The notes under the pieces were generated by a model, which was not told the DNA's origin, searched no databases, and was given only the letters and a program-made list of their open reading frames with translations. From a virus (Duplodnaviria; Heunggongvirae; Uroviricota; Caudoviricetes), in the IMG/VR virus record IMGVR_UViG_3300042256_000013, positions 1-64,000 of that record: DNA of 64,000 bases, one strand, 5' to 3'. This document shows, one piece after another, positions 48,641 through 49,930 of this stretch. A program made the translations under genes and the position numbers. The stretch's first letter is position 1, and the number at the start of each line of letters is the position of its first letter.

Positions 48641-48689
48641 AATTTCCTCTCAATTAAAAGTTGCCGGGTTTCCCCGGCGGGTTTTGGGT

Positions 48690-49780
48690 TATGGCAGGTA
48701 TTCGCTACTGCCTCCCCCTCCGAATCACCTTTACCGCACAAGGGCTAGACCATCTTACAGGTAGCGGGGAATCTATATTCAAAGTATAGTCGGCTATTCC
48801 CTGGTTGTCAAGCACAATGTGACTTATGTAAGCAGTATCACATCACAATGACAACTCATTTTTGAAAAACGCTATGTGCTAGTCCTCTCCGAACAGATTA
48901 TAGCACATAACTTCGCAGTACTGCAATTCCTGGTTTGAACTTCGTTCGGGAAGTTCCCCACGTGTCGCTAATCAAGCTACTCTCGAAAGAGGACTGTACC
49001 TACGCTATACAGTTAACACATGGTTGGAAACACACACGGTATGGTTTATCACCGTACCCTATCAGACGATTAGGGAAAGCCCTCAGTTGGCTTCATTTAG
49101 CTATGCTCAGCTAATCGTGTTTCCTACTCCTATACATTGCGACTGGCAAACCCCTTCCGACCCATCAATTGGCACGAAGCCCACAAAGCGGTATCGGACA
49201 AGGCGTACACTTCCCGCAAAATTTACTACAGTATTCGCAATTCCTCTCCAGCATGGAGGGGTATTGTATATTCGAGTTCAGGTATCGACGCCATAAACAG
49301 TCATCCTCTTTATACCGGCAATATTATCCTATTCTCGAAGGTTGTTGCCCTTACTATTCAAGGGCGAAGTCAGACATGAACAGGTTTCACGGATTCTCTA
49401 TGGGGCGAACCCCAACTTCATCTCCACCTTGGATCTCTATGTATCCCAAGTTCATTTGCAATTTGTCAGTTCTTACTACTCTCAGAGCCATACGTATTTG
49501 CTTAACGTACCTCAGTAGTTAAAGAACTCGCATCATATAATAAGTAAAAGTTTTGAATCAGTTAATTACTTCATGACGGCGATCTCCTATAGTTCCGGTT
49601 CGCGGGGCGACGCTGCACCCGCTAGGGTTCTACACGGCAGTCTACACGCTGTAGTACTGCGACTTTTTGCTCATTTAGAGCCGCAAATTCAAGAGTTTTC
49701 TAAGATATTAGGGTGTTAGATTATCTGTTACATCTGCGTTCAATCCTCTTTGGTAGTTTAAACACGTTTCCACGTTCACT
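48690..49780 (-). ncRNA. candidate long structured non-coding RNA (about 1.1 kb) or degenerate element
   Basis: ORF-free on the transcribed strand and visibly GC-richer than flanks; fed by tandem promoters at 49775-49815 and 49893-49930; hairpin terminator near 48655-48690. Confidence 0.4.
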
Positions 49781-49815
49781 TCAGAGTCTTCATAATACTA
49801 TCAAGCGAAATGGCT
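49775..49815 (-). promoter_or_regulatory. promoter aaaaaagtacTTGACA-N17-TATTAT
   Basis: Minus strand reads aaaaaagtacTTGACAgccatttcgcttgatagTATTATgaag. Confidence 0.5.
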
Positions 49816-49892
49816 GTCAAGTACTTTTTTCTTTTTCTTTCAACTTTTCACCCTTAAGTACTTTACAGTACCAGACAGTGCGGTGAGCTTCC

Positions 49893-49930
49893 TGTCTTGA
49901 GGTGTTCAGTATAACACATTGAATCAGGCG
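49893..49930 (-). promoter_or_regulatory. promoter aaaaaagtccTTGACC-N16-TATACT with UP-like A-tracts
   Basis: Lies inside the 3' end of ORF 49924-50169 and fires into the ORF-free region. Confidence 0.5.

Follow-up and report, generated by a model that had tools for sequence, protein, structure and literature searches.

A predicted modular non-coding RNA ahead of a sigma factor gene cluster in jumbo phages of the GAP32 group

Introduction

What fills a long interval without genes in an otherwise gene-dense phage genome? The question is raised by a 1.2-kb gap at about 48,650-49,930 of a 64,000-nucleotide (nt) stretch of Caudoviricetes DNA (IMG/VR record IMGVR_UViG_3300042256_000013, positions 1 to 64,000), referred to here as the window. 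The source is a jumbo phage of ~360 kb that belongs to the GAP32 group. The gap is the largest in the window, with the caveat that 1.2 kb free of open reading frames (ORFs) is not rare in random sequence. The relevant genes here lie on the minus strand, so the RNA described below is read on that strand. An original prediction, made from the sequence alone, took the gap to encode a long structured RNA and proposed three identities for it: a large regulatory or decoy RNA, a ribozyme or intron remnant, or a decayed gene kept as RNA. The comparisons reported here argue that the gap holds a gene for a modular non-coding RNA (ncRNA), bounded by predicted promoters and a predicted terminator, whose helices covary among related phages.

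Results

Conservation and non-coding character of the gap

The closest nucleotide matches to positions 48600-50000 are Xanthomonas phage XbC2 and Erwinia phage Kaldavass (~84% identity), followed by GAP32, CBB, Serratia phage BF, the Erwinia pEa_SNUABM phages and Yersinia phage fHe-Yen9-04. All of these carry a homologous gap of 0.7-1.5 kb at the same syntenic place, which the annotations either leave empty or fill with tiny ORFs that disagree between genomes. The RNA cores share 79-83% of their nucleotides with those of GAP32 and CBB, against 72% for the sigma factor gene that lies nearby; for GAP32 the values are 81.7% over 895 nt and 72.2%. Since the nucleotide conservation of the cores exceeds that of neighboring protein genes, the region is under selection.

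The conserved sequence lacks the signature of a protein gene. No ORF of at least 60 residues is found on the minus strand between 48640 and 49924, as the original prediction had stated; the longest listed ORFs are 34-36 residues, no sense ORF of at least 40 residues occurs in the window copy, the longest stop-free sense run is 56 codons, and 92 stops are distributed over the three sense frames. Antisense ORFs reach 117 residues, with strand, frame, and boundaries that shift among homologs. The plus-strand ORFs, which overlap in three frames and had been suspected of being spurious, are conserved in neither frame nor extent, in agreement with that suspicion. In an alignment of six close relatives (the window, XbC2, Kaldavass, two metagenome contigs, and GAP32) the variable columns show no periodicity by codon position (125/124/110, p=0.57), whereas the adjacent sigma gene, used as a control, gives 191/69/47 (p=3e-26). 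Ten of the eleven regional ORFs of at least 34 residues were searched against Pfam (E<=0.1) and PHROGs (E<=0.01), and none had a match.

Short hypothetical proteins are nevertheless annotated over the RNA in several GenBank records: six ORFs in Kaldavass (locus L002, 2556-3806), GAP32_487A (L003, 2921-3088), BF_0505 (L007, 3005-3373), and pEa49_00542 (L006, 2776-3093). Their strands and frames differ, and XbC2 and CBB have no annotation over the RNA. These ORF calls are very likely wrong. Judged from sequence comparison, the region is an ncRNA gene, neither a protein gene nor the remains of one.

Covariation of the predicted structure

An alignment of 13 sequences (A1), comprising the window, four isolates of the Mimasvirus group, four Eneladusvirus isolates, and four metagenome contigs, was folded with RNAalifold. 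The consensus contains 114 base pairs in 22 helices, which bears out the reported richness in stem-loops. Compensatory double changes are seen at 50 of the 114 pairs, compared with 31±2.8 in 500 shuffled alignments, none of which reached the observed number, and with 6-13 in controls in which the 3' partners were slid by 1-3 columns. Counted independently, standard pairs fill 96.1% of cells, compared with 85.6% in shuffles and 37-44% after sliding. The covariation score (0.384 vs. 0.186 in shuffles) was likewise reached in 0/500 shuffles. This signal, which the original prediction had named as a check, is unusually clear for so few sequences. Together with the lack of a coding signal and with nucleotide conservation above that of neighboring protein genes, the compensatory pairs uphold the proposal of a long structured RNA; that the region is a structured RNA maintained by selection is, on these comparisons, very probable.

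No covariation-supported helix joins any two modules, either in the A1 consensus or in the fold of the six close relatives. Given also that the modules (M1-M4, Table 1) are conserved separately, the RNA appears to be a chain of separable modules rather than one integrated fold. Its length ranges from about 0.2 kb in XaC1 through 0.56 kb in the divergent homolog L058 and 0.68 kb in fHe-Yen9-04 to 1.25 kb in XbC2. XaC1 and metagenome contig L021 have no module but M1, M1 and M2 occur together in L058, and M4 is missing in GAP32 and fHe-Yen9-04. The family extends over Mimasvirus, Eneladusvirus, and a few uncultivated relatives. Paralogs of M2-M4 were not detected by nhmmer elsewhere in the window or in the relatives 121Q, EJP2, and Munch, which lack the gap; additional pattern scans of viral contigs returned known members and chance matches only.

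The RNA does not correspond to a described family. With Rfam 15 at gathering thresholds, the only matches in the whole window are five tRNAs at 60-62 kb. At E<=10, positions 48400-50200 gave a sub-threshold match to sroH, discussed below, and noise; at E<=5, nothing was found inside the RNA at seven homologous loci, and ARAGORN found nothing at this locus. Families without a match at threshold include group I and II introns, RNase P, tmRNA, 6S, tRNA, GOLLD, ROOL, HEARO, OLE, and riboswitches. A paper on an ncRNA at this phage locus was not found in the searchable literature. The RNA family is thus absent from Rfam and from that literature.

Promoters, terminator, and transcription unit

The original prediction placed two UP-element promoters with TTGAC hexamers ahead of the region, and both were recovered a few bases from where they had been drawn (Table 1), P1 overlapping the 3' end of the preceding 81-residue gene. 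An A-rich UP-like tract lies just upstream of P1 (about 49936-49965), and P2 is preceded by the A-tract GAAAGAAAAAGAAAAAAGTAC (about 49821-49845). P1 and P2 form a duplicated unit with a spacing of 115 bp, and both are kept in all seven related phages first aligned. The sequence AAAAGTACTTGACAG at P2 is nearly invariant in an eight-phage alignment, P2 is also present in the divergent homologs L057 and L058, and the first bases after its predicted start, (A/U)AG(A/U)CUCU(G/A/U)AAG, are conserved. By consensus matches, promoters and terminator are conserved across all homologs; their functions are predicted. Kaldavass has a third copy of the promoter unit upstream of P1, CCTTGACAAACC...GATATACT (L002, about 2450-2560). 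Behind it comes the leader CUAAGAAGGAAGUUCACC, which the BF group has downstream of P1, and AAAAAGAUGUAAAAAAG closes the unit. Promoter and leader have therefore been duplicated together to varying degrees.

The G+C-rich hairpin named in the original prediction was confirmed at the 3' end by a terminator scan. It consists of a six-base-pair, all-GC stem with a GAAA loop followed by AACUUUUAAU, and so has the hairpin and U-run of an intrinsic terminator. The stem covaries among the phages (CCGGAG../CCACC.. in the BF group), and the CUUUUAA sequence is invariant. The U-run is short (four U's) and lies 3 nt away from the stem, which suggests a leaky terminator of uncertain efficiency. The Shine-Dalgarno (SD) sequence and start of a gene for a 138-residue protein directly follow the terminator tail. 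No internal terminators were found on the minus strand in the same scan.

Two internal promoter-like sequences, at 48811-48783 and at 48905-48897, were additional to the original prediction, as was the modular make-up of the RNA. Both lie inside covarying helices (helices P1 and P2 of M4, and A1 columns 1024-1064), and in the BF group the M4 helices are kept while the hexamers of the 48811-48783 site are missing. RNA structure therefore accounts for the conservation of these sites.

Raised G+C content had also been reported, and it was measured at 0.42-0.48 over 48500-49700 compared with 0.32-0.39 in the flanks (window mean 0.377). G equals or exceeds C in all but one 100-nt bin of the transcript. 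A G-rich, C-poor transcript fits a poor substrate for Rho, given what is generally known of Rho rut sites. A sequence resembling the boxA antiterminator of rrn operons and phage lambda, GUUCUUUAAC (about 49525), is not conserved in XbC2 or Kaldavass and was discarded.

Table 1. Positions of the predicted RNA, its parts, and adjacent features in the window
Feature	Position	Strand	Description
ncRNA gene	48652..49785	-	~1.13 kb from P2 start to terminator U-tract; ~1.25 kb from P1
Predicted promoter P1	49908..49935	-	TTGACC-16-TATACT with TG; consensus scan 10/12; predicted start near 49901
Predicted promoter P2	49792..49820	-	TTGACA-17-TATTAT; consensus scan 11/12; predicted start near 49785
M1	49725..49751	-	AAAGAGGAUUGAACGCAGAUGUAACAG; SD-like AAAGAGG, 11-nt spacer, AUG (49733-49731), UAA (49730-49728)
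Lineage-specific 5' domain	49585..49724	-	G+C-rich hairpins, e.g. GCGGG..CCCGC, CAGUACUACAGCGUGUAGACUG
Second start-stop-like element	49587-49566	-	GGAG (49587-49584), 9 nt, AUG AAG UAA; UCAUGAAGUAA at 49576-49566 in M2
M2, central core	49346..49581	-	UCAUGAAGUAA, AUUGCAAAUGAAC, A(A/G)GGUGGAGAUGAA, CUGUUCAUGUCUGACUUC, then covarying hairpin (49365-49347)
Variable middle domain	49138..49339	-	Long hairpins 49339-49271, 49266-49238, 49218-49138; A1 columns 500-790
M3	48868..49124	-	Best-conserved core; two multi-branch domains and three further hairpins
Internal promoter-like sequence	48905-48897	-	Invariant TGcTATAAT
M4, SroH-like element	48712..48818	-	P1 GGGAA/UUCCC, P2 CUAUA/UAUAG, P3 ACC/GGU, pseudoknot CCGA (48793-48790)/UCGG
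Internal promoter-like site	48811-48783	-	TTGACA-17-TATACT, scores 11/12; overlaps M4
3' end	48652..48711	-	Variable hairpin GGCAG..CUGCC (48712-48693), terminator stem, tail AACUUUUAAUU
Predicted terminator	48678-48663	-	GCCGGG-GAAA-CCCGGC, then AACTTTTAAT; terminator scan
81-residue gene	49924-50169		Upstream neighbor; 3' end overlapped by P1
138-residue gene	48640-48224	-	First gene after the terminator; hydrophobic N-terminus, no Pfam family

M1 and a second start-stop-like element

M1 resembles a ribosome-binding site whose start codon is directly followed by a stop codon. It is invariant in 13/13 sequences of A1 except at one R position, and it is the sole part retained in L021 and in XaC1, the latter with one more mismatch in the last bases; in XaC1 it lies within a leader of ~130 nt ahead of a small gene. 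In L057, the most divergent homolog, the spacer has changed, with GAGG and ACGCAAAUGUAA retained. Candidate pairings of the 5'-CUCU with the M1 SD, and of M1 with the terminator tail, involve only invariant columns and hence give no covariation signal either way. Whether M1 is a true ribosome-binding start-stop site is, on its sequence features, evenly poised.

Other identities for M1 were examined and rejected. A repeated DNA-level signal, for instance a promoter for the phage sigma factor, is at variance with its single copy in the window, even at three mismatches, and with its occurrence once per genome in 19 GenBank phage records. As regards a bacterial origin, a scan of genome contigs gave seven matches in unrelated phyla, below the ~17 estimated by chance. 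The M1 spacer GAUUGAACGC (49743-49734) appears identical to nucleotides 27-36 of Escherichia coli 16S rRNA, the 5' strand of helix 3; this is probably chance, since L057 has GCUUUACGC instead.

A second element of similar kind, in which AUG and UAA are separated by the codon AAG, overlaps the start of M2. It is kept in 12/13 sequences of A1, is absent from fHe-Yen9-04, L057, and L058, and is predicted to pair with GACUUC inside M2. The window also contains a cluster of five tRNA genes at 60134-61934 (minus strand: Ala-UGC, two Met-CAU, Lys-CUU, and Cys-GCA). These tRNAs cover both codons of the element, AUG and AAG, which may well be a coincidence.

M2, M3, and the variable domains

The lineage-specific domain between M1 and M2 is present in the group formed by the window, XbC2, Kaldavass, and GAP32, and is largely missing from CBB, BF, and fHe-Yen9-04, where A1 columns 100-240 are gapped. 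Few compensatory changes are seen in it in the fold of the six close relatives because these sequences are close to one another.

M2 is rich in junctions and has many invariant unpaired bases. By nhmmer it is found in Mimasvirus and Eneladusvirus members, L058, and L057, and not in L021 or XaC1. Its closing helix AUGAAC/GUUCAU shows compensatory changes in CBB and L057, and helices 6-8 covary. The middle domain that follows is partly or wholly lost in CBB, BF, and fHe-Yen9-04, and carries an extra 52-nt insertion in XbC2; each of its helices has 1-4 compensatory pairs in the fold of the six close relatives.

M3 occurs in 13/13 sequences and in L057, and its helices (10-20) hold most of the compensatory pairs. 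In its first domain, the closing helix GGAAACAC/GUGUUUCC surrounds four hairpins; a second multi-branch domain is closed by CAUGUGUU/GACACGUG and its hairpins carry AGCGUAG and UUCG loops. Towards the 3' end, an invariant unpaired strand, UUGCAGUACUNCGAAGUU, separates the GAACUUC-CCGAAC-GAAGUUC hairpin from another one that holds the promoter-like UGCUAUAAU (48905-48897). The minimum free energy structure of the 257-nt M3 sequence by itself equals the covariation model and is unusually stable (z=-4.9, 0/200 shuffles). A tRNA-like reading of the five-way junction in M3 was rejected on inspection: the 7-nt loop varies freely, and neither U33 nor a T-loop is present.

M4 resembles the E. coli small RNA SroH

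M4, whose conserved 3' strand is GUGCGGUAAAGGUGAUUCGG, precedes the variable hairpin and the terminator. The Rfam sroH model scores 26.4 bits on M4 (E=7.3e-4), against a gathering score of 80 bits, and, noise apart, it is the only family that came up inside the RNA in the Rfam scan called for by the original prediction, below threshold. In the reverse direction, a covariance model (R1) built from nine phage M4 sequences finds E. coli sroH (L073, 4367-4475, minus strand) with 38.3 bits and E about 1.7e-8 in 155 kb, a rough value owing to short calibration; the next match has 17 bits. A joint alignment of M4 and sroH contains 17 pairs, 96.4% paired, with seven double changes vs. 2.0±1.0 in shuffles, although the alignment was fitted to the model and is biased towards it. 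The pseudoknot joins the internal-loop CCGA with the 3'-tail UCGG, and one of its C-G pairs is A-U in sroH.

M4 and SroH (RF00372; K-12 4190327-4190487, between yjaZ and thiH) share the blocks CCAGG, AGC.GACU, CCCGC.ACCUG, and GGUC.AG.C..GU.CGGUAA.GG.G.UUC. Their paired strands differ in a compensatory manner (GGGAA/UUCCC vs. GGAUG/CAUCC; CUAUA/UAUAG vs. CUGA/UCAG; CCGA/UCGG vs. CAGA/UCUG). Two nested helices are common to both, the third hairpin varies in length, and the order of motif, extra hairpin, and terminator is the same. In contrast to M4, which forms the tail of a 1.1-kb RNA in a different context, SroH is a primary transcript of ~160 nt with its own upstream promoter. No suitable promoter was found upstream of M4, and transcription from the overlapping promoter-like site would begin within the fold. 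By blastn, a method too insensitive even for sroH, the complete RNA had no match in 5,426 E. coli genomes. Taken together, these comparisons indicate that M4 is probably related to SroH. In the papers found on SroH, deletion is reported to cause sensitivity to envelope stress, PNPase binding and a possible Hfq cross-link are described, and no function is given.

Genomic neighborhood

In every phage examined, the gap lies upstream of, and is co-directional with, a small cluster of genes, the last of which encodes a sigma-70-like factor. This cluster encodes, in GAP32, CBB, XbC2, and Kaldavass, a helix-turn-helix (HTH) regulator, a protein of ~50 residues, and the sigma factor; in fHe-Yen9-04 an unnamed gene occupies the HTH position downstream of the RNA. 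The 138-residue gene of the window is common to the pEa_SNUABM phages and is absent from GAP32, CBB, XbC2, and Kaldavass, where the HTH gene directly follows the RNA. The authors of the CBB genome described this part as a predicted early region rich in RpoD/UP promoters (PMC5259590).

Other features of the window

Several further observations are recorded here. Unannotated gaps of 0.55-0.7 kb lie a few kb downstream of the sigma gene in 121Q (L065, 4963-5686), EJP2 (L063, 7256-7888), Munch (L064, 8034-8599), and fHe-Yen9-04 (L061, 6602-7287); searches of these four for M1-M4 homology and for an SD-start-stop motif found neither. A second stretch without a long ORF, bounded by promoters and a terminator, lies at 14790-15350 on the minus strand. 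Its signals are TTGACG-17-TACTAT near 15345, the UP-like AAAAAAGTACTTGATC...TGATAATAT near 15140, and, near 14815-14785, a hairpin with a T-run. Kaldavass and XbC2 share this stretch at 80-82% identity, and in both genomes portions of it occur five times; conservation of the initial ~95 nt reaches as far as RaK2 and K64-1. It has no Rfam match, and could be a further early ncRNA or a leader present in several copies. The most frequent hexamer of the window is AGTACT (e.g., at 49658 and 48922), with 279 copies against ~21 expected from base composition, at a density of 20-42 per 4 kb in 0-28 kb vs. 10-12 per 4 kb in 28-64 kb. It often lies within the promoter context AAAAAGTACTTGAC, and it could be linked to promoters, to modification, or to restriction.

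Discussion

The findings are best explained by a modular early ncRNA that acts as RNA, an explanation that we regard as probable, if well short of secure. Of the three identities originally offered, the large regulatory or decoy RNA fits best. Host sigma-70 RNA polymerase would transcribe the RNA early and strongly from the tandem UP-element promoters, most transcripts would end at the hairpin terminator (48678-48652), and the G-rich, highly paired transcript would escape Rho. A ribosome docked at the M1 start-stop and unable to elongate could shield the 5' end. M2 and M3 would form compact multi-helix cores, with their invariant unpaired nucleotides as binding surfaces for protein or RNA, and M4 with the next hairpin and the terminator would copy or mimic the SroH of the host. 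On this view the transcript would act in trans, whether it persists intact in large amounts or is cleaved into several RNAs, by engaging the RNA-handling machinery of the host. Where polymerase reads through the weak terminator, the RNA would in addition serve as leader for the early genes that follow, those of the membrane protein, the HTH regulator, and the sigma factor. That the main action is in trans, as a stable RNA, decoy, or small RNA mimic, is plausible but somewhat doubtful, and the leader role is inseparable from a trans-acting one, given the constant position upstream of the HTH and sigma genes. It is tempting to go further and propose a new class of viral long ncRNA, in which a multi-module early RNA of ~1 kb, stabilized by a ribosome, mimics or captures host RNA-handling components through its modules and carries in M4 a viral SroH; at present this is speculative and rather unlikely to hold in full. 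A CsrB-like sponge was considered and rejected, as GGA motifs do not exceed expectation (by eye and a rough base-composition estimate).

Several observations weigh against the favored explanation. A transcriptome was not found in the literature for any phage that carries the RNA, so that its expression, ends, and processing are predictions. The M2 fold alone is not unusually stable (z=-1.5). The internal promoter-like sites at 48811-48783 and TGcTATAAT could give rise to several shorter transcripts instead of one long RNA. With regard to the docked ribosome, the mean unpaired probability of M1 (0.24-0.64 in 12 homologs, vs. 0.38-0.43 in the surrounding RNA) is no higher than average and speaks neither for nor against docking, the SD-AUG spacing of 11 nt is longer than optimal, and the spacer is invariant in all members but L057, beyond the needs of a plain ribosome site; this spacing and this invariance may mean that something more specific recognizes M1. 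The resemblance to SroH explains little mechanistically, since the match reaches 26 bits against 80 required and SroH is itself an orphan. Finally, given the constant position before the HTH/sigma cluster and the short, offset U-run, a leader acting in cis explains the synteny equally well.

Such a purely cis-acting leader or attenuator would gate transcription into the membrane-protein, HTH, and sigma genes through the terminator, and perhaps through M1, and so time a switch in transcription. Its position and orientation before the HTH/small/sigma cluster are constant in every homolog, there is no good promoter between the terminator and those genes save an internal P4-like site, the terminator with its 3-nt spacer and four U's looks leaky, and the short leader of XaC1 places M1 before a small gene. 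However, 1 kb of independently folding, covarying modules with invariant loops far exceeds the needs of known attenuators, and whole modules have been gained and lost while the terminator is unchanged. The consensus folds offer no alternative antiterminator partner for the terminator stem, the next gene varies (the 138-residue membrane protein in the window and pEa phages, the HTH gene in GAP32, CBB, and XbC2), and M4, hairpin, and terminator are laid out as in a free-standing small RNA. A purely cis-acting role is consequently judged unlikely, though it deserves serious attention. Another alternative is an array of independent small RNA genes, in which M2, M3, and M4 would yield separate RNAs from internal promoters or by RNase processing. 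Here the separable evolution of the modules, the lack of inter-module helices supported by covariation, the 11/12 score of the site at 48811-48783, and the accumulation of E. coli SroH in primary and processed forms (PMC5389530) are in favor. Yet both internal promoter-like sites lie within covarying helices, a transcript initiated from 48811-48783 would have its 5' end within M4 and so lack one strand of helix P1 and one of the pseudoknot, the BF group has the M4 helices without the hexamers, and no internal terminators were found on the minus strand. An array appears distinctly unlikely in its own right; it overlaps with the processing variant of the favored explanation.

The remaining alternatives are much weaker. 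A ribozyme, self-splicing intron remnant, or other mobile RNA, the second of the identities originally offered, is compatible with the size, multi-helix junctions, GNRA and UUCG loops, and invariant unpaired nucleotides. It is improbable because no match to a group I or II intron, hammerhead, twister, HDV, RNase P, HEARO, or other ribozyme model was obtained (E<=10 in the window, E<=5 at the seven loci), no gene is interrupted or split and no flanking exon is found, neither a homing endonuclease nor a reverse transcriptase is encoded within the region or next to it, and the region has its own promoters and terminator. Tandem promoters followed by a non-coding stretch and a G-rich transcript also recall a replication origin with a primer or R-loop RNA, like the T7 primary origin or ColE1 RNA II. 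This is very improbable: the only direct repeats are those of the promoter duplication and no iterons occur, an AT-rich unwinding element is lacking where the region is a local G+C maximum, and cumulative GC skew is monotonic with no local turn. A primer, moreover, would need no dozens of covarying hairpins with conserved loops, and the region ends in a terminator with genes directly after it. The third original identity, a decayed protein gene, or alternatively a set of very small real genes as annotated in Kaldavass, GAP32, BF, and pEa49, can appeal to the annotators' calls and to the antisense ORFs of up to 117 residues. It is the hardest to credit, given that the called ORFs differ in strand, frame, and extent between phages, that XbC2 and CBB annotate none, that there is neither an excess of third-position substitutions nor a Pfam or PHROG match, and that base-pair covariation explains the conservation instead.

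Were the RNA only a long leader, the annotation of these genomes would still be corrected. Its fixed place before the sigma factor hints at a part in the transition from early to later transcription in a poorly understood group of jumbo phages, and the SD-AUG-UAA block would be a natural, conserved start-stop at the head of an ncRNA. The link to SroH ties an orphan small RNA of the host to a viral counterpart and supplies a three-helix and pseudoknot model that is missing from Rfam. If the proposal of a new class is true, the phage would use RNA instead of protein as a device for taking over its host, and the viral copy would provide a first functional handle on SroH. The RNA is carried by cultivable phages of tractable hosts (Cronobacter, Pectobacterium, Erwinia, Serratia, and Yersinia).

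Comparison with known systems

The start-stop-like elements recall the well-established bar minigenes of phage lambda and start-stop sites of bacteria. M1 shares with these an SD, an AUG, and a stop codon. It differs from bar in having no sense codon after the AUG, so that peptidyl-tRNA drop-off of an elongator tRNA would not occur. The second element has the same two-codon minigene form as bar (AUG AUA UAA), and both would be part of a probably very abundant RNA.

The promoter region resembles the P1-P2 arrangement of rRNA operons, with two strong predicted sigma-70 promoters with A-rich UP-like elements 115 bp apart and an untranslated, structured, G-rich RNA behind them. Unlike rRNA operons, the RNA has no rRNA-like Rfam match, and no boxA-type signal is conserved among its homologs (by eye). 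In the distantly related jumbo phage PA5oct, RNA-seq identified two ORF-free RNAs, ncRNA001 and ncRNA002, that are highly transcribed from early infection on (PMC7318152). The PA5oct RNAs differ from the RNA described here in that they lie in the terminal repeat, measure 236 and 451 nt, and come with no report of structure or covariation; no homology between them and the RNA was detectable by nhmmer.

Large, intricately folded bacterial or phage RNAs of no known function are, to our knowledge, rare, and OLE, GOLLD, ROOL, and HEARO each opened new biochemistry. The features of these families, and of raiA, are well established, and the RNA shares with them a size within 0.5-1.2 kb, many covarying helices, multi-way junctions, and an unexplained biochemical role. 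With GOLLD and ROOL it further shares carriage by phages alongside tRNA genes, which lie here at 60.1-61.9 kb. It matches none of the Rfam models of these five and, in contrast to them, is confined to one clade of enterobacterial jumbo phages, gains and loses modules, and combines a 5' start-stop element with a leader position before regulatory genes. Among large phage ncRNAs, it stands out by its modular make-up, by a start-stop element at the 5' end, by a tail that resembles SroH, and by a constant position before the phage sigma factor.

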